From: Cyanophora paradoxa CCMP329 | Taxonomy: Eukaryota; Plantae; Glaucophyta | Direction: 5' to 3' | Assembly: GCA_004431415.1 (NCBI GenBank) | Contig: QPMI01000496.1 | Span: 310,001 to 374,000, forward strand | DNA length: 64,000 bases | Shown: positions 1 to 37,729 of the stretch, piece after piece | Layout: each line of letters begins with the position of its first letter | Position numbering within the stretch: the first letter of the stretch is position 1 | Program-made: the position numbers and the translations under genes | Notes under the pieces: model-generated | What the model was told of the DNA's origin: nothing | Database searches by the model: none | Seen by the model: only the letters and a program-made list of their open reading frames with translations

Positions 1-1
1 T

Positions 2-2308
2 TCCGATTTCGATGTAGTGAGTGGTTGGAATAGCACAGGTGTAGCATTTGTCGGAAGTTGGCAGACCGATTGGAAACCTACAACAGATAACCCAGTAGCA
101 GGATTTTATAGCACTATACAAAATGAAGAGACGAGCAGTGACTACGCGCAAGTTATAGTGCCGACAGGAATGAAAACATGTCACATCCAATATTTATGTT
201 GGACGAATGCGAGATATTTCGATATTCAGGGATACCGCAACAGTCGATGGAATCACATTATGAGAGTGAATACTTACCAGAATGTATCAAACACAGCCGA
301 TACAAATTGGCACGACAGTTTATTATGGACTTCCGTATTTTGTGGGAATTTTACACATATTCGAGTTGTTGCGAGAAAAGGACGAATTCATATCGGATAT
401 TTTGCATGGACGAAAGAGGTAGGAAGAACCGCACCAGCAAATGGTATGATAAGTTGGGATAATGTGTATAGTAAACCATCTTTTTATTCAGCCGCAGACC
501 TTCCAGGAACAGCAACATGGGCAATTGATACATGGTTAAAATCAACAGATAACTATTCACGGTTCTATTTTGCAAATGCAAATGCTACATATATTCGAGG
601 AAGACCCAATGGAGATAATGCGTGCGTTGTATTCAGAAACTCAGCAGATGCTACAATTTTACAATCATATGAAAACGGAAACCTTGCAGTTAACAATACT
701 TTGTCCGCTCCGACTCTAAGTGGAACAATCATTAATGGAGGTTCAATTAATGCTACTACAAACTATAAATTTGGCGACAAAACAATGCCCCGATGTGTAG
801 AATATGACGCATCGGTAGCAGGGAATTCCCCACATGGTTATGCAGGAAGTTGGAGTTTTGAAGGTGGAACGTATTGGGAACCCTACTATAATTACGGTGG
901 GTATGCTTACAATAATGAGAGTGGCGACACTGTTGTTAGCAGCTCATGGGTCGATTACACAATTCCAACTGATATATATACGGGAACAGCCCACTTATTA
1001 TATCTCCCTTGGGTAAATGGTCGTTACTTCGAGATTTGGGGAATCAATAGACAAGGTAATGCGGTTTTCATTGCAAGAGTAAATAGTTATCATCTACATG
1101 AAAGCGCACCAGACGGAAACCACAATGGCATACAAAATATCCCAATCATGCTTGGAAATCGCTTTATTCGCCTTCGTATTATTCCAAAGGTTGGCAGAAT
1201 TCACATTATGGGGATTGGATTTACTCGCAGTTGGACAGGAAGTAGTTATGGTGGACACACAGGTTTTGTTTCTTGGGATAACATTTATAGTAAGCCAAAT
1301 CTACTTACACCGAGTTTAGTCGGAAACATTACAGGTTTCGATACTTGGAGTGGAACAGGTAGTGGCGGTCTATCATTTAGTGGTGGTTGGACAACAGGTT
1401 GGACAGCTTCTGTTTCTAATCCTGTGGATGGATTTTACAGCAATATAGGAGATGAAACGACAAGTGGAGATTGGGCGCAAATTGAAGTTCCCGCTAATAT
1501 GAAATCATGTCACGTTCAATATCTGTGTTGGACAACAAGTAGATATTTCGATATTGGAGGTTATCGAGCGGGTAGATGGTTCCATATTATGCGTGTGAAT
1601 ACTTACCAGGCAATCTCCAATTATGGAACCACAGATTATCATGATGGTTTGGCGTGGGCTTCCTTTGCTTGTGATTATTTCACACACGTAAGATTTGTCG
1701 CAAGAAAAGGACGCTGTTACATTGGAATGGTAGGATGGACAAAAGAAAAAGGGAGAACCTCACCCGCTAATGGTATGATAAGTTGGGATAATGTTTATAG
1801 TAAAGACGCTCGCACCACATGGGCTACCGGAACTTGGATAACATCAGATGAAGGTTATCAGAGAATGTATTTCGGTTCAGCATCAACTACATATATCAGA
1901 GGTCATGCGGCAACAGTAGTAGAGTTTAGAAATGCATCGGATACAAACATAGCATATATCGAACAAAGTGGATACATGTATATTGCGGCATATTTGACAC
2001 AAGGAAGTGACAGACGGTATAAATCGGACATCAAAAGGATAACCGGCGCTCTGAAAGCTGTCGAGCAATTAGAAGGAGTAAGCTTTAAACGAATTGGAAG
2101 CGAAAAAGACGGAACCAAATTAGGTTTAATAGCGCAAGATGTTCAAAAGGTAATACCAGAAGTTGTTAATACAAAATACGATGATGGTTACCTATCTCTC
2201 GAATACACAGGATTGGTTCCAGTTCTCATTGAAGCCGTAAAAGAATTATCCCAGAAATGCAAGAGTCTACAAGATCAAATAGACCAAATTAAGCTCCAAG
2301 GAAGCTAG
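2..2308 (+). CDS. Virion fibre/spike-like protein with three repeated domains and C-terminal peptidase S74 (intramolecular chaperone); 5'-truncated by window
   Basis: Frame is open from nt 2. C-terminus SDRRYKSDIKRI...GLIAQDVQKVIPEVV...LEYTGLVPVLIEAVKEL plus coiled coil is the S74 signature. Three ~150-aa repeats each end SWDN(V/I)YSK. Confidence 0.85.
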   Translation, partial: SDFDVVSGWNSTGVAFVGSWQTDWKPTTDNPVAGFYSTIQNEETSSDYAQVIVPTGMKTCHIQYLCWTNARYFDIQGYRNSRWNHIMRVNTYQNVSNTADTNWHDSLLWTSVFCGNFTHIRVVARKGRIHIGYFAWTKEVGRTAPANGMISWDNVYSKPSFYSAADLPGTATWAIDTWLKSTDNYSRFYFANANATYIRGRPNGDNACVVFRNSADATILQSYENGNLAVNNTLSAPTLSGTIINGGSINATTNYKFGDKTMPRCVEYDASVAGNSPHGYAGSWSFEGGTYWEPYYNYGGYAYNNESGDTVVSSSWVDYTIPTDIYTGTAHLLYLPWVNGRYFEIWGINRQGNAVFIARVNSYHLHESAPDGNHNGIQNIPIMLGNRFIRLRIIPKVGRIHIMGIGFTRSWTGSSYGGHTGFVSWDNIYSKPNLLTPSLVGNITGFDTWSGTGSGGLSFSGGWTTGWTASVSNPVDGFYSNIGDETTSGDWAQIEVPANMKSCHVQYLCWTTSRYFDIGGYRAGRWFHIMRVNTYQAISNYGTTDYHDGLAWASFACDYFTHVRFVARKGRCYIGMVGWTKEKGRTSPANGMISWDNVYSKDARTTWATGTWITSDEGYQRMYFGSASTTYIRGHAATVVEFRNASDTNIAYIEQSGYMYIAAYLTQGSDRRYKSDIKRITGALKAVEQLEGVSFKRIGSEKDGTKLGLIAQDVQKVIPEVVNTKYDDGYLSLEYTGLVPVLIEAVKELSQKCKSLQDQIDQIKLQGS

Positions 2309-2406
2309 CTATAGTCATGAGCATTTGCAAGCGGCACTTTCAGAGCTCGAGTAGTCTCAATAAGATAGATAGATCTGCGTTTTTTTTCTGTGTTTAATTA
2401 GAATAA

Positions 2407-2715
2407 ATGGCGACCTATCCACTTGGTGGATCTCCTTCTACTACTACTGAACCTGTTGCTCTTGCATTCGATACCATAAAACTTGTAGCCGCACTGCAAA
2501 ACGTCGAAAAAACAATCCAGCACACTAACAAACTGTCACCAGTCGTTCATGAATATAAAAACCTCTTGGTTAATGTCCTTGCGCAATCGGCATATGGTGA
2601 CCCTGTTGCTAAATACACTGAGTGTGATAGCAATATCAAAGCAATGACAGCCAACCTTCAAACTCTTTCTGTTGCTTACCAATCCCTAGGATCGAATCTA
2701 ATCAGTTTGGCGTGA
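2407..2715 (+). CDS. Hypothetical viral protein (102 aa, helical)
   Basis: ATG preceded by AT-rich leader (ttaattagaataaATG); co-oriented with neighbours. Confidence 0.6.
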   Translation: MATYPLGGSPSTTTEPVALAFDTIKLVAALQNVEKTIQHTNKLSPVVHEYKNLLVNVLAQSAYGDPVAKYTECDSNIKAMTANLQTLSVAYQSLGSNLISLA

Positions 2716-2815
2716 ACTATGTTGAGCTGTACGAACCGTTTTTTTTTTGCTGACCGGTTTTTGCTGACTGTTTTTTTTCTGTTCTTTCGTTTTAAAGACG
2801 GGGTCTCCCTTCGCC

Positions 2816-3664
2816 ATGGCTGAATTTAATCGCGTGCAGCTGCCCATCTATAGTCTTGGGTCTCCTGCGATCCACATGAGGACGCACGAGGTAAGCGATG
2901 CAGTTATTGGTCTTGAGTCCACTGAGCGCGCTAACTCGACCAATGCTTTCGATCACAGATCGCTGATTCGCTGCAGAGAGATTCGGGCTGATAAAAATGC
3001 GGGAGCTGTGAAAACCACACGCCTGCTCGTGACAAACGCAAATTTCAATCAGCCATTGCTAGGCGGCCCAGACGCATACAGCGTAGATTTACGTACGCTG
3101 AACTATGATCAGAACAACGCTGCTCTTACAGTGCGTTCTGGGGGCGCGGCGATTTCTGGTAGCTGCAGAGTCAGTGGAGTCCACTCCTCTTCGATTTCTG
3201 TCACTGATGTGCCTGACTTTTCATTGGAGAATGCTGAGAATCGTCAACGCGTTCGCATGTACCAGCCATGCTGCGACCTGCCTTACGCACAGGCTCTGAT
3301 TGAAGTAGAGATCACGATTGCAAATGCAAGCCGGCCTGAGGGCACTGATGGTCCGTGGTTGCTTTCAAACAGAGAGATCCCGAAAGCGCTGCAGTCCATG
3401 TGCCAGGATCAAAATAACCGACTCGGCCACGTTTATACGTTCTTTGTGCAGGGACTTGGGCATGCTGGACAGGGTTACGTAGTACGTAATATTAATACGA
3501 GACATCTATTCGATCTATATGCGACTACAATAGGTCGGTACTCGCTGCTCGTCATCGGCTACAGAACCGACGGGGCTGCAAACGCAGCTTCGAGAGGGAT
3601 CAACATTGATCCGACACTCAATAACATGTACGATGAACCGAACCCCCTAGACCCTCTTCCATAG
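2816..3664 (+). CDS. Hypothetical viral protein, paralog A (possible minor virion/fibre-associated protein)
   Basis: 282 aa; N-terminal HxVSDxVxGxxSTE...E(I/L)RADKNxGxxKTTxLLVxNANxN shared with ORF 3716-4540. Confidence 0.75.
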   Translation: MAEFNRVQLPIYSLGSPAIHMRTHEVSDAVIGLESTERANSTNAFDHRSLIRCREIRADKNAGAVKTTRLLVTNANFNQPLLGGPDAYSVDLRTLNYDQNNAALTVRSGGAAISGSCRVSGVHSSSISVTDVPDFSLENAENRQRVRMYQPCCDLPYAQALIEVEITIANASRPEGTDGPWLLSNREIPKALQSMCQDQNNRLGHVYTFFVQGLGHAGQGYVVRNINTRHLFDLYATTIGRYSLLVIGYRTDGAANAASRGINIDPTLNNMYDEPNPLDPLP

Positions 3665-3715
3665 CGCGTTCTCTTTCCGGCATTCTCTTTTTTTTAAACC
3701 AGCCGTCTATAAAAA

Positions 3716-4540
3716 ATGGCTAGCGCAGTTGAAAGGATAGTGACGACGAGCCTCACTCTAGCGGCGCCAGCTGATCACGTTCTGCAGCACGCAGTCTCCG
3801 ATGATGTGCCGGGGGTGCAGTCAACGGAGCAAGCCCCTACCATGAACACCTTCCGTGAAAATCACACTTTGCGCGTTGGCGAGCTCCGTGCAGATAAAAA
3901 CGAGGGCAAAATTAAAACGACCACCCTTCTAGTATCGAATGCAAACTACAATGCTAGCTATGGGGCTGGCGACTCATGGGGCGAACCGATTCATGCATTT
4001 GTTTACGCTGATCGAAACGGAGCTGCTGTTATACGCTCTGGCGGCTGTTATATCGGCGATGGCCTACGAGTTGGGGGGCCGGTCGGTGCTCCTATTTTCC
4101 TGAACGATCAGCCAAACCCTGAGGATTCCAGCACGAGAATTCGAACGTACGTGCCCTCGTCAAACGCTCCTATGCTCATTCATATATCGTTCATGATTGT
4201 GAACGAGCAGACGTCAGACCCTGACAACATCCTCGATCTTGGTGATCACTTCAAGGTCGTTTGCGAAATTCCGCCTGATGTCTTTTTCCTGTGCCGGCGC
4301 GATGATGGGCCGCCGAAGATTACTGTGCAGGTCCTTCCGGTAGATAATTTCGGGCAAGCCTTCCACGCCCCTACAGTCGGGCTGGAGGACTACAAATTCC
4401 TGGTTCGAGCGACGAAGTATGGGACATACAAATTGATTCTCTTCGCTGAGCGCAGCGATGCCATCGCAAACGCACATCGGTTTGCGGAATATGCCGGGAC
4501 CAACCGCTATGCGCCGCCAACGCAGGACTCTGCTCCCTAG
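3716..4540 (+). CDS. Hypothetical viral protein, paralog B (possible minor virion/fibre-associated protein)
   Basis: 274 aa; colinear similarity to 2816-3664 including the C-terminal AT..G.Y.L....R.D..ANA; aaaaaATG context. Confidence 0.75.
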   Translation: MASAVERIVTTSLTLAAPADHVLQHAVSDDVPGVQSTEQAPTMNTFRENHTLRVGELRADKNEGKIKTTTLLVSNANYNASYGAGDSWGEPIHAFVYADRNGAAVIRSGGCYIGDGLRVGGPVGAPIFLNDQPNPEDSSTRIRTYVPSSNAPMLIHISFMIVNEQTSDPDNILDLGDHFKVVCEIPPDVFFLCRRDDGPPKITVQVLPVDNFGQAFHAPTVGLEDYKFLVRATKYGTYKLILFAERSDAIANAHRFAEYAGTNRYAPPTQDSAP

Positions 4541-4576
4541 CGAGATAAATATTATGTGTGTTTAATCAGATAACCA

Positions 4577-4789
4577 ATGTGCTCCTGCCTTGTGACACTG
4601 GCTAAGCTTCTCCTTCATGGGGGCCACGGTCATTTTCATAGCCGCTGCGATGCCGACCTTGATATCTCGGTCAGGTGCCCCATAACGTTGACCGAGGATC
4701 GGTCTCAGCCTTTAGAAAGGCCTTTTCAAACTCCACTAACCGAGGGCGTTTATTCTTCTCCACTCGCAGAAAGCACTTCAATTCTTTAG
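4577..4789 (+). CDS. Small hypothetical viral protein (Cys-containing hydrophobic N-terminus)
   Basis: 70 aa MCSCLVTLAKLLLH...; AT-rich leader; fills the gap between co-oriented ORFs. Confidence 0.4.
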   Translation: MCSCLVTLAKLLLHGGHGHFHSRCDADLDISVRCPITLTEDRSQPLERPFQTPLTEGVYSSPLAESTSIL

Positions 4790-4896
4790 AGGAGGGCGCA
4801 GCAAAGGAGACGGTCGAAGGGTGTCCCCTTCATCGCGACAAAAACGCGATTTTTTTTGTCGTGTTGATAATACTGTGACAAGGATCCAATTCAATA

Positions 4897-5241
4897 ATGC
4901 CAGGCAGCGGAGCAGGCAGCGGAGCCGAAGTAGACCCTCCCATGCGCAAGCGAGGCAGGAAGCGAGTTGTAGTTACGCCTGAAATTTTGGAGGCTCGACG
5001 AGCCAAGAGGGCAGAGTATCGGCGTCGGAAGTACGCCGAAGATCCTGATTTCCGACAGAAGCGTATCGCTGAAAGCACCAAGTACCAGTCAAATCACAGG
5101 GAAGAACACAACGAAGCAAACAGACGCTACCGGGGTCGCATCATGAATAAGATCGCTGTGCTTGAGGCCGCCCTGGCATATGTGTTAGCTAGCGGTCAGG
5201 GCGACTCTTTGGCTGTCGCCTCAGCGTCCTTGTGTTGCTAG
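4897..5241 (+). CDS. Basic helical putative DNA-binding protein
   Basis: RKRGRKR followed by an Arg/Lys-rich helix (EARRAKRAEYRRRKY...RQKRIAES); aataATG context. Confidence 0.6.
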   Translation: MPGSGAGSGAEVDPPMRKRGRKRVVVTPEILEARRAKRAEYRRRKYAEDPDFRQKRIAESTKYQSNHREEHNEANRRYRGRIMNKIAVLEAALAYVLASGQGDSLAVASASLCC

Positions 5242-6388
5242 GTGCTGTGTAAGAAGTGCTTGAGTTTTCGAATGACGAATACCACCTCTGCGTAGCTCCA
5301 CCTGGATTCAGCTTGTCTGTTCCTGCCGTCAGCAACTGCTTTTGTAGGCGGAGTAGCTGCTTACTTTTTTCGATCTGGGACTTGTCCAGGTTTTCCTGCA
5401 TTAGCTTCAGCTCTTGCCTACGTTTTTTCAGAGCTCTCTCTGCCGCTGAACCTGGCTGACGCACTTCGGTGTCCGACGGTATTTTCAGAAGGTACTGGTA
5501 GGTGACGGGTTTGTCGTAGCCTGAGAGGGTAAATTGCAGAAGCGGTCCAAATCCCCCTACAGATTTGATCGTGTGGACCTCTTTCGAGTATGTCGGCTTT
5601 GTTGACTTGTCAAAAGTTCTGGCAGCAAGCTTCACGCGCACCCTATCCCCAACTTTGAATTCCGCCTCTTTAAAGTAGTGCTGCTGCTCGTAAGTCTCTC
5701 TCTGATAATCATTCCTTGCTATTACCTGTGCAGGGTGCTTTGTGGCGTCGTCGGGAGTTGCTCCGATCGATCGATGCTCCGTGCTATTGTAGTTCCTGAG
5801 AAACGCAGGAAGTTTGTCAATGTACCTGTCCGTATCATTAGCTTCCATGTATCGTGCTATGATGCGCTTTAAAGTGCCGTTGAAGCGCTCTATCTTACCG
5901 TTTGCCTGGGGCCTGTGCGATCCAATTAAGTTGTGCTTGATTCCCCTTTCGGCAAGCATGTTTGTAGTTGATGCTTTGAACTCCTGATCGGTCTGAATGA
6001 TTTTCACAGAGGGCAGACTGTCCACCAGCTCGCGAAGCGTTGATAGCAGCGTTCCTTCTGATTTAGTTTTCATCGCGATACTGTACGCCTTCCTAGTGAC
6101 AACGTCGATTGCGTTCATGATAAAGTGCACGCCACGATTCGACCTGGCATATGGAGTGACATCAATCAGGTCGACCTCGTAGTACTGCTCAGGATGATCA
6201 TACACGACGCTCGTCGATGGCAACTCTTTTGGTGGCTTCACAAACCGCTGGGCAGTCGAGAGCTTTGCCAGTACTTCTCTCACTCTGGACACTGGCAGGT
6301 CGAGCTTCTTGGCGATTCGAGCTGCCGACTGAAATCCTGTTTCTGGGTCATAATAAGCATCAGCAATTGATTTCGCTTTGCCACTCAT
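5189..6388 (-). CDS. Polinton-type retroviral-like (RVE, DDE) integrase
   Basis: YYDP..GF.S N-terminus; EVDLID, IDVVTRKAY, IQTDQEF, NGKIERFNGTLK, YNSTEHRSIGATP, FKVGDRVRV...FDK....YSKE motifs; no C-terminal chromodomain seen. Confidence 0.93.
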   Translation of the reverse strand: MSGKAKSIADAYYDPETGFQSAARIAKKLDLPVSRVREVLAKLSTAQRFVKPPKELPSTSVVYDHPEQYYEVDLIDVTPYARSNRGVHFIMNAIDVVTRKAYSIAMKTKSEGTLLSTLRELVDSLPSVKIIQTDQEFKASTTNMLAERGIKHNLIGSHRPQANGKIERFNGTLKRIIARYMEANDTDRYIDKLPAFLRNYNSTEHRSIGATPDDATKHPAQVIARNDYQRETYEQQHYFKEAEFKVGDRVRVKLAARTFDKSTKPTYSKEVHTIKSVGGFGPLLQFTLSGYDKPVTYQYLLKIPSDTEVRQPGSAAERALKKRRQELKLMQENLDKSQIEKSKQLLRLQKQLLTAGTDKLNPGGATQRWYSSFENSSTSYTAPSNTRTLRRQPKSRPDR

Positions 6389-9300
6389 GGGGAACTGTGC
6401 TATAGTAGGCGTCGGGAATTATCTTCCGTTTTGTGTACTCGGTCTTGTTGAGGATGCGCGTGAATGGTGTCTGAATAATTGTGCTGAACCCGATACCTGC
6501 CGCTCGCTGCTTTTTATTAGGGCAGAAGACTCGTGAGAGCTTCGATTCGACCTTGCATTCAGGCTGATACCGGCTCTCGAGCATCTGTCTGAAATCATTC
6601 AGGGTGGTTTCTGCCGAGTGCCAATTTGTCTCGATCCAGCTCCTCGGAATGCCTTTGGCCCGCACATGTAGGCCGTGCTCGCCACTGATTTGTGCAAAGT
6701 AACAGGTACAAACTTTTGGCGCGATGAAGTACGCCTCCACAATTTTACCCTTGATGTCGTAGTCAAGTTTGCCGAGCTCCATTGCGCAGATCCGCTTGTT
6801 CTGCTCCTCTTCCATAAGCCCTTCCAGAGAGTAGGGCTATTTCATGCAGTCTGCCAACACCTCTGCGTGTTTTCTGTGCACAATCATCGAGTCTGTGTCG
6901 GTGTACCAGGGCATTGCATCTATGTTCCAGTACGACCCCATTCTAGTAAGGAAAGTGTCCATGATCTCCCGACTGTAGGACAAGATGAAAGCACCAATAA
7001 AACAAGGCTTCTTGACTTGTTCATCGCGCTCCTCTTCAGGTACTTCGTATGTTACAAACATGCGAGTGTCAGATTCGATTTCAATATCTGTAATCGTCGA
7101 GCTATTTTGGATCGATTTAAAGCACCTGTAGTTGCTTACCAGCTCTCGAGTTTCTATGATGGGGCGCTGGGCAAACTTGCCATAGAGGCCGTTCAGAAGA
7201 ATTTTTGCTGTGGCATACTTGGCCGTGCCCTTTGTAGAGCGCGCTTTCATGCCGTAGACATTTTCAACGTAGTCTTTGAAGAGGCGCTCTTTGCCGTCGA
7301 ACACATACACCTCGTGCACATCGGCGATCTGCACCCCTTTGCAGAGCGCTCTGTAGATGTCAACGGATGTGTACATCTCACGCACAACTGGCTTGAGGTT
7401 GGACCAGCCAAGATTCGATTCGTGCCGTGGTAGTGGAGATAAAGTGAGGTTCTGAGGAATCGTCGCACTAATAGTAGCAATGAATAAATGGGCTTTCTTC
7501 TTACCTGTGATCGTGTATCGATTCAAGTCGTCTCTGAACCGCTGCAAATCGTTGGGGTCGGTCATGTGCCTGAAGCTGCCCGTGGGAAAGTATTTAGAGT
7601 ACATCGCCGTTGGATACAACGACACGACATCTAGGTCGACTAAGTAATCATCAGGCCCAGTCGATTTAAACTTGCGCTTAAAAGGGAGGCAGCGACCGCC
7701 ATAGATCGCCTTGCGGAATGTCTGGTCTTCCTTGTATGTTGGCAGCTTTAATTTGGTGTTGGACGGCATCAGCTGCCTGAAAATCTGAAACGCCATAGAC
7801 GACGCTGTTGGGGTTTGAGTTGAGTTTACGTTGATTTTGAACAAGTCGAAGCTCGTTTTTGCGTAGATCATGTACAGCTCTGTCAGCGACCGCACGTCTT
7901 TCCGAAGATACTCGCTCCATTCTTCTCTATGCCTGTGCACATCAGCCCACGACGTGATCTTTCGATGGTCGAACTCACCCTTCATTGTGCTGCAATTGAA
8001 ATCCTTAGCTGCCTGCTTGAGGGAACCCTGAATGTGCAAACACGGATCGAAACTTGCAAGCTGCCCACCTGCAGAAGTTACCCACTTCATGGTTTTCAAT
8101 TTTCCGTTTGATCGCGTCACAACGACATTGCTGTCAGGTCGATTTGCGATCAGCCACCTATAAAGAAACACAAGGTCGAACCCGCTGCCGTTGTAAAACA
8201 CGATTGTAGTCTTGTCTTTCCACTCATCAAGCCACAGCATGAATTTGTTCAGAGTGTCCTCTCCTTCGAAGGCTCGACTTCCCGAGATCTTCCCATCTGC
8301 AATTATTTCAGCTGCCACTGCGTATGGAACGTGAGTGATGTGGTCGGGGGCAAATGTCTCAAAGTCCGCGCAGATGACCGAGTGCAGAGCGGTAAAGTCG
8401 GCCTCCGGCTCGCAGGCAATAATCTCACGACCGCGTGGACCCTTCATAATTGGCTTACTGCGTACGGCTTTAGCGCACTGCTTTGTGTGGTCCTTCTTCG
8501 CGCTGTACTTACAACGACACTTGGAGCAAAACCTGCAATCTATCTTGTGCTCTGCTAGGTTACTCTGGAGCTCTCCGCAGTTCGTGCAGAGCTCCATCTT
8601 CAGTGTTGCTGCCTTCTTAATCAGGTAGCAGTGAGTATTCACAATGCACAAGTGGGCACGTTGTGCGTAGCCATTTTTGGTCTCGAACAGAGGCTTGAAA
8701 GTTGGTTTTGTCCACTCGTATAGGCTCGCATCAACGCCATAGTACCTGCTCAATTTATCGATGGTTGGCACGTCGACAGCAATAAGGCCCTTCGGTAGCT
8801 TTAATGTCTTCCGTTTGGCACAGTAATCTAGTCTTGCGAGCGTCGCATGGATGGTCTCCAGTTTCGGTGGACACCTGCACATGCCATATCGCTTAGTATA
8901 CTCGAAACATTCAAGCACGCAATTATCTTCAGCGGACATAGGACAGTAAATTTTGTATTGTGTGTGCTCTTTGCCGCCGAAAGGCATCTCACGGAATGGA
9001 ACGTTTCCGAGGGCTCCTGCGTGGTTCTCGGCAATCAGCACCTCAATCTGAACGACCGGCCAGACATTGGCACTATCGTAAGGCTGTTGAGCGAACTGCC
9101 ACTCTTCAAGCTTTTCGTCCAGCTTCGAGAGTATATCTTCCAGCGTATCGTCTGCAATTGTTGCCAACTGCGTGCGGTACATATGCCCATTATCAAACCG
9201 AACGCGAATCATCACGCTAGCACCTAGTTTCTCTTGCACTCGCAGTTCATTTAGAAAACTAATTGTTATCTCACGCACACGCTCAGTGGACGTTGTAGGC

Positions 9301-9710
9301 GCGATGTCGAGCACATCTTTTGTGAAGAGTAGGTTCGGATACTCGTGGTGCTGCACATACCGCCTTTCCGGAATGGAGTCATCAAATAATTCTGAAAAAT
9401 TACTCGCCTCAAGTACGTCATCAAGAGCCTGCGCAGCCGCCGCCCGTGCTATCTGCTCTCGCTCAAAGTGTGCTTGGACGTGTGATTGGTGCAAACGCCT
9501 CGCAGGCTGCGTGGTGTTGCCCAATCGAAGCAGGGTTGCCAATCGAGCTCGCAGTGAGGTCGTCCGGGTTCTTGCCTGCGGTTCTGTTAATCGATTGAGC
9601 GTATTTCTATAGCTCCCATGAATGAACCCACGGGCGTGAAGATCTTGAGCGAGATCGCGGATTTCAGCTCGAAGGGCGTTTCTTGCCATCCTGAGAGTCG
9701 CTTGCATCAA
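6360..9710 (-). CDS. Protein-primed family B DNA polymerase (pPolB), interrupted by one in-frame TAG at 6837-6839
   Basis: Exo motifs ADFETF, FYNGSGFD, YLRKDV; Pol motifs DVVSLYPTAM, KILLNGLYGKFAQ, YTDTDS. ORF 6360-6815 (ELGKL..FIAPK..RAKGIP, thumb) is in the same frame 7 codons after the stop. Confidence 0.93.
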
Positions 9711-9795
9711 TAAGGATCAGAAAAATATTTCGAATTTAAACGCACCAAATCTCCGATTGTCATATATACTAAGCGCTGGCCTTAAGTCGAAGTGG

Positions 9796-9885
9796 GAAGG
9801 GAGACCCTTCAACCCGGCTACGAAGGGAGACCCTTCAACCCCCGCTCTGCGGCGAAGGGAGACCCTTCAACCCCCGCTCTGCGGC
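9796..9885. repeat. Three copies of palindromic GAAGGGAGACCCTTCAACC
   Basis: Copies at ~9796, 9822, 9854; GAAGGG/CCCTTC arms around a 3-nt loop; degenerate 4th copy at ~10298. Confidence 0.9.
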
Positions 9886-9888
9886 TTG

Positions 9889-10132
9889 GTTTTTGCCGAC
9901 CGTTTTTGCTGACCGTTTTTGCTGACGTCGACCTGGTTTTTGCTGACCGTTTTTGCTGACGTCGACCTGGTTTTTGCTGACGTCGACCTTGTTTTTGCTG
10001 ACCGTTTTTGCTGACGTCGACCTGGTTTTTGCTGACGTCGACCTTGTTTTTGCTGACCGTTTTTGCTGACGTCGACCTGGTTTTTGCTGACGTCGACCTG
10101 GTTTTTGCTGACGTTGACCTTGTTTTTGCTGA
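9889..10132. repeat. Subterminal tandem array of 12- and 21-bp units (core GTTTTTGCTGAC, +/- GTCGACCT(G/T))
   Basis: Directly visible mixed array of CGTTTTTGCTGA and CGTCGACCT(G/T)GTTTTTGCTGA. Confidence 0.95.
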
Positions 10133-10415
10133 GCCCGCGGGGGAACGGTCGCCCGCATAAGGACGGAAAAAATCGCGTTTTTTTTTGGGACCCGCCAGGA
10201 GTCGATCCAGTTACAAATGAAAACTGAGCGCAGCATCCTACCACCTCGGCTAATGGGGCGGAAAAAGTAGAACTATGGGGAGCCCCTCCGCAACCGCGAA
10301 AGGAGACCCTTATACCACACTCGACAGACCGCATGGGTCTTCTATGGTTTTTCTGAGTATCATCACACGCCTTTTTCTTGTTTCTTCTAAGATTGTAATT
10401 TGCTTCGTAGAACAA

Positions 10416-10588
10416 GGCCTCGGACCCAACGGAGCAACAACGATTTACACGCGAAATTGAATTACTGTAGTAGCAAATTGCACGACTGTGCAGCGAGCGC
10501 AGCGAGCTGCACTGCTGTGTGTCACATTTGCTATGCAGCGCTTCCGCTTCGTGGAAACCGCAGTTGTTGCTCCGTTGGGTCCGAGGCC
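10416..10588. mobile_element. MITE-like element, perfect 26-bp terminal inverted repeats
   Basis: GGCCTCGGACCCAACGGAGCAACAAC (10416-10441) and its reverse complement (10563-10588); no clear TSD. Confidence 0.7.
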
Positions 10589-12950
10589 ACACAACACTGG
10601 CGCCATGCCACCCTTGCTCGAATCGCCAGCGTCAGCAATGTAGAGTATGTTTTCTGCGGCAAAAGCTCACTAACCTATGATTGTGATCATGAATTCGAAT
10701 TCGAGCTCTATATACGAACCCGGAGTCGTTGCGAGAGCCACTGGGGCAAAGTATCTCGCCGTCGTTGCATTTCCGACGGCCAAACCTTCGAATACGGGCT
10801 TATGTCGCTTCCAAGGCTTTGAAACGCATATGGGAATACAATATCATAGTATAGCTTTAACTAGTAAACGAAAGCACCCACCGCGTTCTATGAGGCTGCC
10901 GTGAATAAAGGTCGAAGTGCAATCGCTGGGCCGCCGCAGTCAATGGACAGCCAAAACGTGCACGAGTGCGCATGCGTGTATATATGCATGCTGACGTTGC
11001 TCGCGATCGTGTGTATATATTTACGAACCTATCAACACGGAAGATGCCTCCACAGCCGGTTGCATTGGATGGATACGAGAAGTCGCCGCAACCAATGTAC
11101 AAATATCCTGCCGATTGCGTCGGCGATTAGCGGCCGGGGTCACAGATACCAGATGCAGTTTGCAATATTATTATACGTATATCGCATGATGGCATCATTC
11201 AGGCAGACTGCGCATGATATCATAGTATGCACGCGTACGCGTACGTGCATGCGCACCGTCGTATGACGAATAATGAATGGCTGCAACCAGATGCGTGCAG
11301 AGCAAAGTTAGCTATGAAGATGACATGTACAGCGCGTGCGCAGCTGCAGCTCCGTCCAGATTACGGATTGAAGGAAGCAAAGCTCACCTGTTATACGTTG
11401 AAAGCTTGCCAAGCTGCCTTGACCTGTGCAGAGATGCGATTAGAACCAAGAATGCAAATATCCTCCTTTGCAATTGCACTCCTAAGTATATATACACACA
11501 CGTGCGCATGCACATTACCTGCAGCGGCAGGAACATCGAGCCTTTGGCCAATGCAGAACCGAGCCGCTCCCACGGCCAGATCGTCGGGATTTCCCGGCAA
11601 ACCCCCAAGATCTGGAGCAGCCGCGGAGACCTCGCCTGCGCATGCCACGGCAAGCGGGCGTCATTTGCGGCAATTGCATGCGAGACTCTGAGAGGTTTAG
11701 CTGATCGAGGCGCCGGCGCCGGCCGCGGGCCGGCATGCGCAGACAATCGCAATTGCAAACCACAAATCTGACCGAGGATTGCAAGTACGAAGATCGCCAC
11801 ATACACGTGCACGTGCACGAATTCGAAGGCGGGGCGTCGCCGACATCCCCGCGGCGGCAGTCGGACGCGTACGTATACGTCCATTCGATGAAGACACCCA
11901 CTGGGCCAGAGCGATCGCGAACTCCGGCAGATTTGCAAGATCTAGATACCTGATCGATCACGAAGAGGACTCCGGGACCAGACAGCTGCAGGCTGCAGGC
12001 TGCCAGGCTGCAGCGCGAGTTCCTAGCTCTAGCTAGTAGCTTTCTACGTACTAACTACGCGCTGTACGGTATACACGTGCACGCAATGTTAATGTTGAAG
12101 TCCGACGGTCCGACGGTCATCGATCACTGTCAACAGTGTCAAGCGCTAGCCATATGCTGCGATGATATGCATCCTACATGAATCATAAACATGATGGCTA
12201 CATCATGGGCCGATGATTCATGGCATGTACTACGGTACAGTCCGACGGTCAAGCCATCCGGTCATAGTACGTAGTACCGTCATACTCGTGTCACGAGTCA
12301 CGACTCACGAGTCGTGTGCAGGCTATACTGTAGATTCAGTGTAGAACTAGCGCTAGCCCTGCGATGAGAATCACGCCTTCGAATCCCGTCCATTCCAAGT
12401 AGGGCACTGGCCGGCGGGTCTAGAACTTAAAGCTTGCACCGGGGCTGGCCCAAAATTCCGAAAGCTTGCACCGGGGCTGGCCCTAGCGGCTTGGCGGCTC
12501 CAAAATTTCGGCTGGCTTGCCAGCGGCTTGCCAGTTACTATGGTACCAATAGCCAGCGCGGCTTGGTCTGGCTTGGTGCAGCTCGCGCTAACTTCACGGT
12601 CTTCACCTATGCTTCGTTCGCCGGCTCGATTGCGAGCCCCGGGCTTGCTGACTTGGCTGACAAGCCGGGGGCTGACTTCTGTACACGCCCCCGCAGTGCT
12701 GGACTCCGGGAGTAGACTAGAGGCAGTGGCCGGTAATTCAATAAACAAAATAGTTAATTTCGGAGGTTTCGAAAATCAAGCTTCGGAATTTCGGTTTCGA
12801 AATTCGTTGTTCCAATTGCCTCTTCGCTCTTCACAGCTCGCCGTCGACGTCACCGTGGTCTCTTTTGTTTTTTTTTGAAAACCGTCGCCTGGATGCAGGT
12901 TCACCGTTCAAATTCGATTAACACATTAGATAAGGGCGCACTAGCGCAGT

Positions 12951-13330: not shown

Positions 13331-13415
13331 TTAATATTGATTCGTTCACGTGCACGTTGTTCCGATCGAATCTTCCGAATCGAATATCGACTTCTGGATC
13401 CGAACTTTGGAATAT

Positions 13416-13592
13416 CGACTAAATATTTCCCGTCTGCTAAAGCTGAGAATTCTGAGGGGTAGCCCCGCCGGACCGTCTCCGCCATACAAAAGCCCCGCGA
13501 AGACCGATCGCGACCTACTAGAGATTTACCAGCCGCTTAAGTGACAGTTTTGGCGAAGTACTAATTATTTTCCTGTACTAAATTAACTAGTT
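13416..13592. repeat. Dispersed repeat (MITE-family fragment), inverted homolog of ~54430-54590
   Basis: e.g. AAGTACTAATTATTTTCCTGTACTAAAT vs ATTTAGTACAGGAAAATAATTAGTACTT. Confidence 0.8.
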
Positions 13593-23765: not shown

Positions 23766-25097
23766 CTACGCGAGGGGGTCCTTCTTGGGGGTGGTGGCGG
23801 GGTGCGAGTCGAGGGCCCCCGTCTGAGTCAGGTGCTCGTACAGCGTCAGCGCGAACAGCGACTTCGCGTCCGGCGTCGACCTGTACCCCCTCCCCCGAGG
23901 GACAGATCAGGAAAGGCTGTACCCCGCCGGAGGCTGTACCCCCATGCTTCGTGCGCACCGCCAGAGATCGTCGAGGGGGATGATCTTGAGCGTGATCGAC
24001 TCGTTCTCGTCCAGGCAGCCTGCGTGGAGGACGGATGGTCGAGGACAGGTGGGGGGTACGCGACGAATCGCGGAGGGGGGCGGGGACGGCGTACCCGTGA
24101 GGCGCCCCTCGAGCTCAGTGATCTTGGCGCGGGGGAGGGTTTCCCGGTACAGGAACACGCGGATGAACTCGTCGCAGCCGCCGGGGCTACCGCAAACGAG
24201 TTCAGGGACGAGGGGGGTACGGCGCCGGGCCGGAGAAGAGGGCTCGCCTGGGGAAGATTCCGCTCCAGGCGCCCTTGGAGGCGAGCTTCGTCAGGTCGAT
24301 CATCTTCTCGGCGTGCACCGTGATGCCCGTCTCCTCCTGCATCCTGCGGCGGCGGCGTGGGCGCCAGGGGCGGGGCGCGCGGGTTCGAATCCAGGCGCCG
24401 CGCACTCCTTGGCCGCCACGCCGGCGAAGTTGCCGGAGCCGTCGAGCATGCCTGGGAGGGCGTACCCCTTTGGCTTTGGCGGGGGTACGCGAATCGAGGC
24501 TCGGGGGGGTACCGGCGGGGATCTCGAGGAAGTTGGCGACGCCGATGGGCACGCGGGGCTGGACGGTCATCAGGGTGTACTTCTTGCCGTCCTCGGCGCA
24601 CTTGAGAATGACGAGGATCGCCACGGAGCCGCCGCGCGCGAAGACGATGCCCGGCGCGGGCTTCCCGTTGGTCGTGTTGATGACCTCGGCCTTGAACTTG
24701 ATGAAGCTGCCGCGGGCGGCGTGAGGCGGGGCGTACGCGGGGGCGCCGACCCACAAAGGGCCGCTGGATGCCACGGGATGCCGCTCGGAGCGGCGCTGCG
24801 CCGGAGGCGGCCGCACCCGATGATGTTGTGCCCGAACACGTCGACCGACTGAATGTGCACGCTCTTCACCTCCAGGGTCTTCTCGTTCTCCATCCGCCTA
24901 ACCCAGTCCACAAGGCTTGCGGTCTCAAGGATACGCTTCGGCTCGACATCGATGCCCGGCGCTAGGGTCACAGGAACCTGCGGCGAGCTAGGTCGGCCGA
25001 GGTGGGCCGGCGGGCACGGCTCCAACCGGCCCGCTCGTACTGGCAAGCGGCGCACCTGCTTCCCACGGATTGCGACGCTCAAGGCGGAAGCCGACAT
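23766..25097 (-). CDS. Nudix hydrolase, plant NUDT14/ADP-sugar pyrophosphatase-like, multi-exon
   Basis: IQSVDVFG..IGFIKFKA..PGIVFARGGSVAIL..QPRVPIG..LEIPAGMLDGSGNFAGVAAKEMQEETG..SPGGCDEFI..DAKSL. Confidence 0.88.
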
Positions 25098-25276
25098 GGT
25101 TCGAGGCGGGAGCTTTGCTGGTGCGGTGGTAGATACTCGCGCGAATGTGCGGAGAGCGAGGCGGAACGTTGCTGCTGCGCGGGCGACCCGGTGACCCCCT
25201 GGTTTTGCCTTCGCTTCTCGTAGCTCTACCCGTCCAGAAAAAAAGAGCCGAAAGAGGACGGCAAGCAGCCGCCGCG

Positions 25277-28200
25277 ATGGCGAACATGTGAGTGGCCACA
25301 CCGCGCTAGGCAGCGCGCAGGCGGCGTCTGACCCGCGGCCGCCCGCAGAACGTACGACGTGCTATGGCGGGAGGCCATGACGGACCTGCTCGACCAGATG
25401 GAGACAGAGTCTCCGGAGGACCCGAGCCTTATCCTCACGGTGCGCCCGGGCCGCCGCCGCGCCGCCGGCTCGCGCTCTCCGCGCACGCGTAGCTAACGCA
25501 GCCGGCGGCGCGAGCAGACGCACTCCGACAAGCAGGAGGTGTTCCAGCACCTCGCCTGCCTGTACATCCGCTACATCCAGATCTTCAGCAAGCTGGAGGA
25601 GTGCTACGATCAAATCCTGCACCCGCAGAAGCGAGCGGACATCCGAAAGATCCTAGAATCCACCATGGGCCGCATCCTTGAGATCAAGGACGTGCGCGCT
25701 CTCCCTCCGCGCCCTCCCGCCGCGCCCCGCCCCGCCGCGGCGCTCCCGGCGCGGGAAGCTCACCGGGGCACGGCGGCGGGGCGCAGCAACTGGTGCAGAA
25801 CCAGAAGACGGAGTACATCAACCTGGACGACATCCTGGTGGACCTTAAGCTGCAGCCGGACGTGCTCGAGCTGCCCATCCCCCACTACTTCATCGAGGAG
25901 CGCAAGAAGGAGCTCGAGGACCGCGAGCGGCTCATGGCGCGCCCGCCCCGCCCCGCCCCGCCCCCGCGCGCTCGCTCCGCCGCTGACCGCCGCTCTGGAG
26001 CGCAGGCGGCTCTGATGACGCAGGCGGGGATACGGGACCCGACGACGGTCCCGCCGGCGCCGCGGGGCTACGTGGGGCCCGAGCTCTCCGTGGAGCAGGC
26101 GATCCGCATCATCCAGGTCAACGAGCGCGGCCGGCAGGGGCGCCAGCGCGCCAAGCTCACCCGCGAGATCCGGAGGCGAGCTCGCCCCTCTTACCCCCGC
26201 TTGCCACCCCGCCTTGACTCCTCCTTTTCCCGCAGGGAAGAGGAGCGGGAGCAGCGGCACGCGGAGATCGGCGACCTGGAGGCCGACCCCGACCTCGCCG
26301 CCATCACCATCCAGAAGAAGTGCGCCCGTACCCCTCCCGGCAGACTCCGGGGGTAGAGGCCGACGCCGGCGCCGCAGCTTCCGCGGGTTCATCGCGCGGA
26401 AGAAGGTCGACGTCATGCGCGAGGAGGAGCTCGTCTTCCTCGGTGCGGCGTACCCCCCTGCCCCCGCGCCGTTCCGCCCCGGAAGCGTACCCCGACGCCC
26501 CTCGTCCCCCCAAGGGATGGCGCCGCCGAAGCGGCCGGAGCCGGAGCACGACCCGATACTCAAGATGGAGAAGAACAAGGTGAGGGGGTGGTCGTCCAGG
26601 GGTACGGCCCGCCGCGGGCCGCCCGCCTGACGCGTGCCGGGGGGTACAGTCGAGGAGGAAACACGACCAGGAGCAGCACGGGAGGGAGTTCGACGACGGG
26701 ATCAACGCCCTGCGGCGCAAGTGCGGGCGCCCTCCTCCTCACCCCGCCCCCCGCCCCCCGCCCCCCGCCTCGCCCCGCCCAACGCGGGCAGGATGTACGA
26801 GCTGGAGGGCCCGGACATCCGCGACGCGATGCAGGACAAGATCCGCCAGTGGTTCATCGCCACCCGCGAGGCCCGCCCCCGGCCCCGGCCCCCTCGGCCC
26901 GCTCCCTTGCTCCTTCGCCTCGCCTGAGAGGCCGCCCCCGGGGGCGCGCCGCGCAGGCGACGGGCCAGTTCCCGGAGTACCCGCCGCGGGAGGAGGGCGG
27001 CTCGCTGGAGATCCTGCACCCCCCTCCGCCCCTGACAGCCGAGGAGCTTGCCGACCTCGCCCGCAAGAAGGAGGAGGGTGCCTCTTCCCTCCCCCCTTCC
27101 TCCCCTGCCCCCAGAGCCCGTCTCACGCCCCGCCCCGCCCCGCCCCGCCTTTTTGCCTGCAGAGGAGCTGGCGGCGAAGGGCAAGGGCAAGGGCGGCGCC
27201 AAGGGCGACTCGAAGGGCAAGGGTTCGCCCCCCTTCCCGCGCCGCCGCACCCGCCGCCGCCTCCAAAGATCGCTTCTTCGCTACCGCCGCCTCCGATGCC
27301 GACACGGGGCGGGGCGGGGCGGGCAGGCAAGGGGAAGGGCAAGGGCAAGGGGAAGGGCAAGGGGGAGCCGGAGGAGGAGGACACGGGGCCGAAGCCCCTC
27401 CCCGCCTTCTGGGTCCCCTTCGTCCAGCAGGGGTGCGCCCACGCCACCCCGCCCCGCCCCGCCCTCCTCGGCGTCTGACGGGGGCGCTCTGCGGCGGGCA
27501 GGATCACGCAGTACTGCAAGGTGTGGCAGGACCGGGACGAGTCGTGGAACGTGGCGCAGAAGCACGACCCCGAGCTCGTCAAGGAGGGCCTCCGCCCCGA
27601 GCTCGAGGAGGAGGTCCCCGGGGCGGGGGGGGGTACAGGGCGACGAGGGGGGCTGACGCCGGGGCCCGCACACGCACCGCAGATCCGGCTCCAGGTGGAC
27701 GAGGCGATGCGCGTCGAGCTCGAGAACCTCAAGCTCGCCGTCGTGCGCACCACCGCCCCCCACTGACCCGCCCCGCCCCGCTGTCTCACGGGGGCGGCAG
27801 GAGCGGGCCAAGGCGCGGGCCTCGGGGAAGAAGGGCAAGAAGGGCAAGCCCAAGAAGAAGAAGGTCCGTCCGCTGCTCGGACCCCTTACTTCGATGGGAG
27901 CGGGTCCTGATGGGGACGGCGTGCCGGGCGGGGCAGGACAAGAAGAAGAAGGAGAAGGGGAAGAAGGGGAAGAAGGACCCGACGGCGAACCGCTCCATCG
28001 AATCCCTCTTCGCGGAGCTCATCGGCAACGGCATCGTCCAGAAGGCGCGGCCGTGCCCCCGCCCGCCCCAGCAAGGTCCCCGCTCGCCTCACCTTCGTTC
28101 TCCCGCCCCCCGCAGCACCCGCGGGTGTTCCTGAAGGAGCTCGTCGGCGAGTTCAACTACCTCGGCTCCACCCTCGAGAAGGTCCTTTCCGTTTCCCGGC

Positions 28201-30190
28201 AGAAGAGTGTCTCGACGTAGGCGCGGCGCGCGGCTAGCTGCACTCCCGGGCGCTGCTGCTCCTGGAAGCAAGGCATAGAAACGGGGGTGTGTGGGGGGGG
28301 GGGGGGGGAGGGGGGGGGGGGGGGGAAGGAAGACCTCGAGCTGTGGGGCCGCGCCCGCCGCTCCTGTCCGAGGCCTCCTGTCCTCCTGCCTGACGCCGCG
28401 GCGCCCCGGGCCGCTCCCCCGCGCAGGCGAAGATCACGCCGGACCCCTCCATCGCCCAGATCCGCCAGGTCGCCTCCGAGTTCGCCATCCTGCCCCTCGG
28501 CTCCCAGGTCCGCACCCGTACCCCTCGCGGTGCCCGCCCCCTCTTCTCTTCATCTCATCCTGCCCCCCCTTCCTTTCCTCCCCCCAGTTCGTGCACGAGA
28601 ACACGCCGCTTATCAACTCTGTCCTCCTCTACGGCGCGAGGTGCTCCAACCCACCTGAGCCCCGATCCCGAGCCCCCCGCCTCACCTGAGCGGATTCCTC
28701 CCCCCAAAAATACAGCGGGACGGGTAAGACGATGCTGGCGCACTCGGTGGCGACGGAGACGGGGTCCGTCTTCATGAACCTGAGCCCCAAGGCGCGCCCC
28801 CGTACCCCCTCCCGGCCGCCTCTACCCCCATCCAGCCGTCCCTCGGCCGTCCTGGTCCGCTTCCCTATCTCATCCGGGCCCGGGCAGAACACGGACGGGA
28901 AGTACCCCGGGAAGCAGGCCTCCCTCATGCTCCACATCGTCTTCAAGGCGCGGCGCACCTCTCTCCGCTCCCGTGCCCCCGGCCCCGATCGAGCGCGTAC
29001 CCCCCGCAGGTGGCGAAGGCGATGGCGCCGGCGGTCATCTACATCGACGACTGCGAGGCGAGCGGGGCGGGGGCGAAGCCGAGCCGAGCCGCGGGGAGCG
29101 TCTGGCTGACCCGCGCGGCCCTGGCAGATGGTGTTCAGCTCGGAGAAGAAGAAGAAGGGGGGCGCGGCGGGGGGCCTCACGGAGCCGGCGAACCGCATCA
29201 AGAAGGAGCTCCTCGCCCAGATGAAGGACCTCACCAAGGTGCGGCGCGGGGCGGGCCGCGCGGGGCAGGGCGGGATAGGCTGCGGAGGGGCCTGGAGGGG
29301 CCAGCAGCTTGCCCTGCGGGCGGAAGCCACGCGTGTGCGAGGGCGCCCTGCCGACGACGGCTTCCTCCCCCCCGCGCAGGAGCACCGGGTGCTGGTGCTG
29401 GGGAACACCCGCGAGCCCTGGAACCTCTCCGCCTCCGACACCAAGGTACCCCTCCCCGGCACCCGTACCCGGGGCCGCCGGTGCTGCGCTAACGCCGTAC
29501 CCCCCCCCCGGCAGGCGGTCGTGAACTTCTTCGGGAAGATCATATTCCTCCCCCGGCCCGACTACGCCTCCCGGCAGCTCCTCTGGCGGGTCCGTCCGTT
29601 CGTTCGCTCGTTCGCGCGCGTACCCCCCTGACTTGGTTCATGGCTTGACTCGGTTTGGCGGCGGCAGACGCTCATTGAGAAGGCGGGGGCGCCTGTCGGG
29701 GACAAGTTGGACCTGGAGACCCTGGCCCACATTTCGGAGGGGTACTCCGCAGGCTGCGTGCGCCAGCGCCCGAACCCGAGCCCCAGCGACTTCTCCCCCC
29801 GCCCCCCGAACTCACGGGGGTACCCAGATATCCGACGCGGTTCGGATGGTCCTAACGAAGCGGCGCCTGCAGACGGCGCGCCCGCGCCCGCCTCCCTACC
29901 CCCACCGCCTCGCCTTCCCGATACCCCCCGCAGGCCGCCAAGCGACCGCTGACCTGCACCGAGTTCCTATACCCCCTGGCCAAGATGGAGCCGATCTACG
30001 CGAAGGAGGACGAGCAGTTCCGGGTACGACGCTCGAGCCGCCGGGCTTTGGTACCCCGCCCGCCGGCCTCTGAGGCGCGCCGCAGAATTGGACGAACTCG
30101 CTTAAGCCGCCCCCGGTGGACCCCGCGGCCGCGGCGGAGGCGGCCAAGGGCAAGGGCAAGGGCAAGGGTAAGGGCAAGGCGAAGAAGTGA
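25277..30190 (+). CDS. IQCA1: IQ and AAA domain-containing protein / dynein regulatory complex subunit 11 (~29 introns)
   Basis: [13 protein letters not shown]..., [28 protein letters not shown] motifs, [12 protein letters not shown], Walker [26 protein letters not shown]. Confidence 0.93.
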
Positions 30191-30631
30191 GGAGTGCGCG
30201 TAGGCTCTCGACCCCCGGCACGGCGTCCCGCCTTCGGCCGCCGCACCAGCCCCGACCCCACCCGTCCCACGCGCCGCGATCCCTCGCCGCAGCCCGCTAG
30301 CCGTAGTACAGGACTCTGCTACTTGTCAGAACCGATGAACGCGTCGATGCGCCTCTGCACCGCAGTACTGCGCGAGCTCGCGATCGAGCACTGCACCTCG
30401 AACTGAGTGCATCACTAGTACTGTGCATGTGATTGCTGCAGCTCGAATTCGAACTTGTCCTCAAGCTTAAGTTGGCGAACGAAGGCTTGAAAGGGGTACA
30501 GCGCTTCGCAAGGCCAGCCGGCGAGGAAGATGAGCTAGGTTGGCAGCGCAGCTGCGTTTCAAGCTCGCCTATCGTGTGGCAGTACCTATTGAGGAGCACA
30601 GCGATCGCCTGGCCGCCCCCCCGGAGTCGCC

Positions 30632-33600: not shown

Positions 33601-34141
33601 CGCCGAAGCGCCCGCCGCCGGCGGCGGCAGCAGGGCGGGGGCGGGCAGTCGCAGCGGTCGCAGCGGGCGGCGCGGCACAAGTCGCAGCGGGAGGAGGAGG
33701 AGGATTGGGACGAGGAGGAGTCGGAGGCGGACAGCGACGACTCGGACTACCGCCCGAGAAGAAGAAGAAGAAGACCAAGGGCAAGGCCGCGCCCGGCTCG
33801 GCCCGCGGCCGCGGCCGCCCGCGCAAGGGCCCCGGCGGGCCGCCCCCGGGGCCCTCCCCTGGGCCACCAGGCGGCCCCTCGTACGCGCCGGCGCCCCGGG
33901 CGGCCACGGACACCTCGCCGCCGCCGCCCCGGGCCAGGCCTACCGCCCCGCCGCCCCCGGGGGGTACCACCAGCACCACCACCACCAGCAGCCGCAGCAC
34001 CAGCACCGGCCGGCCGGCGGCTACGGGGCCGCCCCCGCCTACGCGGCGCCGGGGGGGTACGGGGCCGCCGCCGCCGCGGGCAGCTACAACAGCGACGACG
34101 ACCTCAGCGATGACTACGACGATGACGTCAACATCATGTGA
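30632..34141 (+). CDS. BRWD/PHIP-like protein: ancillary domain plus bromodomain plus low-complexity tail, multi-exon
   Basis: YIPQ/VGDVVMYMRQGH, DFLILKSKYD, SSWECLKVQW, RVSPWEI; bromodomain AGPFLE..YRQTIACPLDL..RL...YYR..NC..FN. Confidence 0.82.
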
Positions 34142-36081: not shown

Positions 36082-36102
36082 CCCGGGTACTGCGAAACCT
36101 CC

Positions 36103-36903: not shown

Positions 36904-36934
<31 letters not shown>

Positions 36935-37676: not shown

Positions 37677-37729
37677 GCCGCGGCACTCAGACGGCAGCTT
37701 AGAACTAGATTATTTCAATAGAGGTTCTG

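Follow-up and report, generated by a model that had tools for sequence, protein, structure and literature searches.

Near the start of a 64,000-nucleotide stretch of the Cyanophora paradoxa CCMP329 genome (contig QPMI01000496.1, positions 310,001 to 374,000; hereafter the window), a fibre-like gene ending in a peptidase S74 chaperone domain lies close to a protein-primed DNA polymerase of family B (pPolB) and an RVE (retroviral-type) integrase. The locus raises the question of what kind of element brings these genes together in a glaucophyte alga, and whether that kind is already known. An earlier note on this DNA proposed an integrating Polinton-like double-stranded DNA virus with a phage-style fibre, and this is the best reading of our data, given the matches to Pfam, phi29 and PHROG entries and the contigs that link the genes. 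We put at about 0.82 the probability that the first ~10.6 kb of the window are the right-hand part of an integrated Polinton-like virus (PLV) with an intact RVE integrase, a stop-interrupted polymerase and an S74 fibre.

Gene content, linkage and relatives of the element

Eight uninterrupted open reading frames (ORFs) lie within the first 9.7 kb of the window. A Pfam scan of the eight encoded proteins assigned three to families (Peptidase_S74, rve_3 and DNA_pol_B_2), the other five having none above cut-off; capsid, ATPase and protease were not found among them. The fibre-like gene (2..2308, + strand) is open at its 5' end at the window edge, has 768 visible residues and carries the Peptidase_S74 domain. 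It is followed on the same strand by ORF2 (2407..2715, 102 aa), ORF3 (2816..3664, 282 aa), ORF4 (3716..4540, 274 aa) and ORF5 (4897..5241, 114 aa). On the minus strand are the integrase (5189..6388, 399 aa, intact), a polymerase C-terminal ORF with its own ATG (6360..6815, 151 aa) and the N-terminal part of the polymerase (6837..9707, 956 aa), the start of the integrase overlapping the 3' end of the C-terminal ORF. The earlier inventory of pPolB, RVE integrase, a gene of more than 760 residues ending in S74 and two paralogous ORFs agrees with the Pfam assignments and with the match between ORF3 and ORF4 (32% identity over 250 aa, E = 4e-32), and the ORFs at 2407-2715 and 4897-5241 are additions to it. 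The description of these genes as intronless holds in that the ORFs are continuous, but the polymerase reading frame is broken by a TAG codon at 6837-6839 (- strand).

Two of the features that define the PLV and Maverick-Polinton group are thus present, namely a protein-primed polymerase, albeit interrupted by one in-frame stop, and an integrase of the rve type (the alternative in the group being a tyrosine recombinase). The group is further characterized by a double jelly-roll major capsid protein and penton, an A32-type packaging ATPase, terminal inverted repeats of hundreds of bases and a target-site duplication of 5-6 bp. The polymerase ORF matches DNA_pol_B_2 (PF03175) with E = 2e-61 and phi29 polymerase with E = 2.7e-8, and it has the exonuclease motifs as well as motifs A, B and C of the polymerase domain. 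The integrase matches rve_3 with E = 1.1e-8, and D73, D134 and E167 are candidates for its DDE residues.

Linkage of these genes was assessed with 20 sequencing runs of one organism, which contain 82-86% of sampled window words. Six runs were examined, four of DNA type (X1, X2, X13 and X20) and two possibly of RNA; X1 and X13 come from the same sample, and a single strain may underlie all runs, so the comparison tests the assembly and not the spread of the element. The two possibly-RNA runs gave no contigs on the window, a result with no bearing on expression. Single contigs with no differences from the window covered 2600-9362 (X1), 2600-9848 (X2 and X20) and 2716-9848 (X13). Because the contigs of three runs start inside ORF2, ORF2 is joined to the polymerase block. 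ORF2 also follows the fibre gene in other copies (joints from 2292 to 2402), where the spacer is shorter.

Depth and composition divide the element into two blocks. The summed depth of 1-2688 is 6-77x that of the single-copy contig, with many variants, and the depth of 2600-9848 is about equal to that of the right flank; summed depth is not a copy number, although the contrast between the blocks is clear. Hence the fibre block is a member of a multicopy family and the polymerase-integrase block is single-copy. The G+C content is 40% at 1-2800, 50% at 2801-9780 and 70% at 14001-40000. At 80% likeness, diverged relatives were found for ORF3, for the integrase (a 1,928-nt contig at 9.2-10x depth) and for the polymerase (a 16.6-kb contig and a multicopy subfamily at ~5-7x), the multicopy pieces related to ORF3 matching it at 3347-3543. 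The organism therefore holds a family of such elements, of which the present copy has a divergent replication block.

The right-hand end of the element probably lies further out than 10321, where the earlier note had placed it, as each of the four DNA-type runs has a contig that crosses this position without a break and covers 10114-10597. Beyond the polymerase, subterminal tandem repeats (9781..10132, no strand) comprise a 32-nt unit and then a 13/21/55-nt array. They overlap a candidate right terminal inverted repeat (10114..10597, no strand), the depth of which is 1.44-1.79x that of the flank and 1.09-1.63x that of the inner contig, short of 2x. The contig branches at 10597, one X1 contig extending 515 letters further, and a one-base indel at 10177 is seen in two of the four runs. 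The raised depth, the branch and the one-base variant together fit a two-copy sequence, and 10114-10597 is a candidate for the right copy of a terminal inverted repeat, with the element probably ending near 10597. A perfect 26-nt inverted repeat (10416-10441 and 10563-10588) is located inside this stretch.

Searches with the polymerase found 77 related loci, 76 of them metagenomic and one viral. Scanning viral contigs with the polymerase, the fibre or an alignment of ORF4 yielded no relative that could be confirmed, and the polymerase alignment yielded one locus. In the two best-scoring metagenomic relatives, L002 and L004, the polymerase is followed by an rve integrase in the same order as in the window, and the integrase of L002 is 31% identical to ours. 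Besides these two genes, L002 encodes an A32 ATPase (E = 3e-6), a penton-like DUF5901 protein and a product of 398 aa that weakly matches the PBCV-1 capsid (E = 0.015); in L004 there are a fibre-like gene and a match to Capsid_N below threshold (E = 0.079). An A32 gene is likewise present in L001 and L031, which share a 35-row clade with the window in a FastTree phylogeny of 74 rows (the window, 35 of the 77 loci and 38 of the best 40 of 150 proteins). As records in their own right, L002:844-14087 and L004:1-10217 are compact, unannotated Polinton-like contigs with polymerase and integrase in tandem and with capsid and fibre candidates.

Among proteins, the best polymerase match is a Cyanophora paradoxa sequence in EukProt (P0034, 62% identity over ~140 aa), which alone stands far above 39% identity among the polymerase matches if its cluster mate P0157, also a C. 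paradoxa protein in EukProt (64% over 138 aa), is set aside. These matches by themselves point to C. paradoxa or a close glaucophyte as the likely host. The gene model of P0157 fuses reverse transcriptase/RNase H-like sequence of retrotransposon type to a fragment of a related polymerase (domains assigned by eye), which suggests that a retrotransposon inserted in a copy of the family.

The smaller ORFs are less readily placed. ORF2 matched no family above cut-off in Pfam or PHROG searches. ORF5 has no Pfam family and is rich in arginine and lysine, a composition from which it might possibly bind DNA. ORF4 has two relatives (70% and 62% identity), and its single-sequence fold model was unusable (pLDDT, the predicted local distance difference test, of 30). 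For ORF3 and ORF4 the best Atlas score was 0.81, the PDB held no sequence match of note, and profile comparison with L002's candidates for penton, capsid and fibre gave no match. Directly upstream of ORF3 is a 12-nt motif (2801..2812, + strand), three more copies of which lie upstream of the polymerase. Allowing at most one mismatch, the 64 kb contain six matches, five of them within the element, compared with 0.44 expected for a motif that was picked post hoc; it is a candidate promoter element.

An in-frame stop in the polymerase gene

The TAG at 6837-6839 is codon 957 of the polymerase and divides the 956-aa N-terminal part from the 151-aa C-terminal ORF at 6360-6815. Beyond it the same frame remains open for 158 more codons, which can be aligned to the C-terminal ends of homologues. 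According to a passage of PMC10120064, stop codons in elements of this kind are often assembly errors. This one is not, being found in contigs of all four DNA-type runs examined of the 20, and the same observation rules out a sequencing error.

Four explanations for the stop were considered, with odds that are a matter of judgement. A natural split of the polymerase into two subunits and a nonsense mutation share the lead, each with somewhat less than an even chance. The TAG sits within residues 955-973, which an alignment with 12 homologues identifies as the sole query-specific insertion of at least 10 aa; a random nonsense change would hit this insertion (19 of 985 residues) only ~2% of the time, which favours the natural split. 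An ATG occurs 21 nt 3' of the TAG, with a 6-bp hairpin between them, and a stop in the sole long insertion with an ATG 21 nt on is the anatomy of gene fission. In comparison with a diverged copy, 13 of the 16 listed differences in the C-terminal ORF (there are at least 16 in all) fall at third codon positions. However, the match to that diverged copy extends only to 6812 and so stops a little before the ATG, and this counts against a natural split, as do two surveys of homologues: none of the 145 with motif C ends within 90 aa of it, and the four stops found near 74 motif-C matches in related loci are never at the same place. An intron across the stop is unlikely. Eleven in-frame GT-AG pairs span it, but the odds are kept low because the best-sized pairs combine a weak donor with the loss of a helix that aligns with homologues. 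Readthrough is less likely still, to the point of being improbable.

L036:1874-4271 offers a separate case of breakage: the break in this related polymerase also falls between motif C and the thumb, but elsewhere than in the window copy, and it comes with a frame change.

A narrow literature search found no paper describing a split polymerase in Polintons or virophages. Should the protein-primed polymerase really consist of two natural subunits, its architecture would be new among these elements and might offer a point at which reactivation is controlled. It is a rather doubtful proposition that the locus represents a lineage in which a 956-aa exonuclease/palm subunit and a 151-aa palm-completing/thumb subunit, in tandem with the integrase, accompany a fibre built from a glycan-binding repeat new to Pfam.

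The fibre-like gene and its repeats

The Peptidase_S74 domain (PF13884) is at aa 669-722 of the visible fibre (2006..2167, + strand; E = 6.9e-16) and is followed by a short helical tail, so that the gene has the C-terminal arrangement of an S74 fibre. Residues 663-764 match the phage long-tail-fibre chain 6f45, and the many phage tail-fibre PHROGs that are matched cover aa ~510-766 alone; the first 633 aa have no match among 50,697 phage records.

N-terminal of the S74 domain are three repeats of ~140 aa. Repeat 1 (53..478, + strand; aa 18-159) is a predicted β-sandwich of the galactose-binding or carbohydrate-binding-module (CBM) type, repeat 2 (845..1303, + strand; aa 282-434) was placed by alignment and by BLASTP to the proteins P0003-P0005, and repeat 3 (1397..1804, + strand; aa 466-601) is 62% identical to repeat 1. 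The repeat matched no Pfam family, and an Atlas search gave only leads scoring under 0.9. The AF2 model of repeat 1 has a mean pLDDT of 60, with 57-89 in the core. Its best VIA-align match has Z = 9.6 and a root-mean-square deviation of 3.5 over 117 aligned residues; 18 chains reach Z≥8, mostly CBMs and MAM domains, and sandwiches of CBM, MAM or ephrin type make up most of the best 50 rows. At E≤0.001, Foldseek found nothing in the PDB and two matches in BFVD. With moderate confidence, the model points to a β-sandwich (jelly-roll) fold of a galactose-binding-like CBM. Glycan binding by the repeats may follow from this predicted fold, which is also found in non-lectin domains (MAM, ephrin-binding and IFT25), and the triple repeat is a candidate for the domain with which a glaucophyte virus binds its receptor.

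Relatives of the repeat are few. A search with aa 1-600 found three among 6,298 candidates, and among 5,322 longer proteins searched with a profile there was one, the 1,798-aa S74-capped protein P0006, which shares the repeat domain of the fibre. The three proteins from the first search have a hydrophobic segment at the N-terminus and are encoded on contigs that reach 8.5-41 kb in length; presumably they resemble giant-virus proteins.

From what is known of such families, a working model can be proposed. The integrase would insert the linear genome through its terminal inverted repeats, and protein-primed replication would follow excision. In the virion, to which the fibre is assigned by analogy, the S74 domain would fold the fibre trimer and then cleave itself off, the three repeats predicted to bind carbohydrate would attach to surface glycans, and the fibre, displayed at the capsid vertices, would allow independent entry into the alga.

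Alternative origins and comparison with known systems

Several observations weigh against an integrated PLV. The window begins inside the fibre gene, and neither a gene for capsid, penton or ATPase nor a left terminal repeat was seen in it; the capsid genes of the present copy likely lie upstream of it. Among the 77 related loci, an integrase homologue is present in only seven and homologues of the fibre or of ORF2-5 in none, and the capsid matches in L002 and L004 are weak. The window polymerase forms a long branch in its 35-row clade, where neither L002 nor L004 is its sister. For the fibre, the sugar-binding call draws on fold likeness and the pLDDT 60 model only, with the negative Foldseek search of the PDB noted above. 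Finally, a PLV capsid model matched in only two of the 156 glaucophyte elements of PMC12220804, Table S6 of which is given without the co-occurrence of genes per element. The same table records A32 in 139 elements, rve in 85, pPolB in 49 and S74 in 37, and since 139 of the 156 have A32 as against two with the capsid match, the glaucophyte capsid is probably too divergent for the PLV model.

The strongest competitor, although an unlikely one, is a chimeric or defective remnant, in which a copy of a different, AT-richer multicopy element received, or recombined with, the single-copy polymerase-integrase block (~2.8-10.6 kb), and in which the locus never made virions as one unit. The G+C content steps from 40% to 50% near 2800 and the depth falls from 6-77x to 1x at the same place, the core motif of the 13/21/55-nt subterminal array recurs at 2744-2776, a 15-nt inverted match links 2801-2815 with 9851-9865, and the polymerase carries a stop. 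However, the motifs in common are in mixed orientation and upstream of genes, which makes them more promoter-like than a terminal repeat; pieces like ORF3, the integrase and the polymerase also occur as multicopy diverged relatives; and all ORFs besides the polymerase are intact. Module exchange is, moreover, described as common among PLVs in passages of PMC12220804, and an AT-richer multicopy fibre block joined to a single-copy replication block of 50% G+C fits such exchange within a PLV.

A Mavirus-like virophage, dependent on a giant virus and with a fibre that binds the giant-virus particle, is considerably less probable. Mavirus itself has pPolB, an rve integrase and an S74-bearing gene, MV19 (PMC3671162 and PMC8547959, in part), and the N-terminal hydrophobic segments and contig sizes of the three proteins sharing the fibre repeat would also suit this origin. 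Against it, none of the 156 glaucophyte elements in Table S6 of PMC12220804 has a virophage-type capsid, ATPase or protease, and the capsid candidates of related loci look PLV/NCLDV-type (nucleocytoplasmic large DNA virus). The virophage-like nature raised in the earlier note is thus weakly disfavoured, while dependence on a giant virus would be compatible with a PLV, some of which behave as virophages (passages of bioRxiv 2025.10.09.676808 and bioRxiv 2022.07.28.501842). Weakest of all is a bacteriophage tail-fibre contig misjoined to a Polinton by the assembler, which the phage tail-fibre matches of the fibre C-terminal part and its differing G+C content might suggest, but which is very hard to reconcile with the phage-unlike first 633 aa, the contigs of three runs that cross without differences from ORF2 into the single-copy block, the recurrence of the fibre-ORF2 adjacency in other copies and the normal presence of S74 fibres in PLVs (PMC12220804, in the passages covered).

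The remainder of the window contains unrelated features. Intron-rich host genes occupy 24000-38000, with an adenylate kinase lid domain (E = 1.4e-9) and with what we take by eye to be look-alikes of a Nudix hydrolase, an IQ/AAA protein, a bromodomain protein and initiation factor 3. A non-LTR (long terminal repeat) retrotransposon-like element at 41226-52000 (+ strand) matches Exo_endo_phos (E = 1.7e-12) and RVT_1 (E = 8.4e-13) across several frames and is probably frameshifted. A second, partial reverse-transcriptase fragment is found at 55191-56675 (- strand; RVT_1, E = 7.3e-5, below cut-off). At 13406-13592 and 54428-54600 an AT-rich dispersed repeat occurs in two copies of inverted orientation (82 nt at 91% and 60 nt at 78%) and is probably a non-autonomous host repeat, and an AT-rich stretch at 53640-54087 has a 40-nt inverted repeat (95%, 368 nt apart) resembling a miniature inverted-repeat transposable element.

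The integrated PLV can now be set beside known systems, and here the suggestion that the system is undescribed gives way. Passages of PMC12220804 report S74 genes to be ubiquitous across PLVs and C-terminal in modular fibres with repeated binding domains; a fibre-like protein (Ltf) was found in purified virions of the PLV Gezel-14T (bioRxiv 2022.07.28.501842, in part); and Tetraselmis PLVs have tail-fibre genes and swapped replication modules (bioRxiv 2025.10.09.676808, in part). The fibre module is therefore known biology, and a fibre-bearing PLV is one more example of a class counted in thousands, with 156 in glaucophytes. Adintovirus-like contigs in C. paradoxa are also mentioned in part of PMC8502044.

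The closest systems are the endogenous PLVs of glaucophytes, including C. paradoxa, for which passages of PMC12220804 record pPolB, rve and S74 and a G+C content unlike that of the host; the present locus may itself be among the 156. The fibre modules named for glaucophyte PLVs in the passages covered are discoidin and phage-tail-repeat/H-lectin, and those passages do not mention a Pfam-negative triple repeat or a split polymerase. More widely, PLV fibres of the Laminin_G_3, collagen and BppL_N types (PMC12220804, in part) and the Ltf of Gezel-14T resemble the window fibre in being long and modular with tandem predicted glycan-binding domains, and the terminal S74 domain (chaperone of endosialidase) is common to the window fibre and the PLV fibres described in those passages. 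In contrast to them, the window repeat matches no Pfam family and its predicted fold is that of a galactose-binding CBM, not Laminin G3. Mavirus and the Cafeteria endogenous mavirus-like elements share pPolB, the rve integrase, an S74-bearing gene (MV19), intronless genes and, in candidate form here, terminal inverted repeats with the window (PMC3671162 and PMC8547959, in part), but elements of this type are defined by a virophage-type capsid, penton, ATPase and cysteine protease, which are absent from the glaucophyte catalogue as far as the passages covered go. Canonical Polintons/Mavericks likewise share pPolB, the RVE integrase and, with the candidate at 10114-10597, terminal inverted repeats of hundreds of bases; they differ from the window, which is without an adenain-like protease (as are all 156 elements of Table S6 in PMC12220804, in the part covered) and in which the polymerase gene is interrupted.

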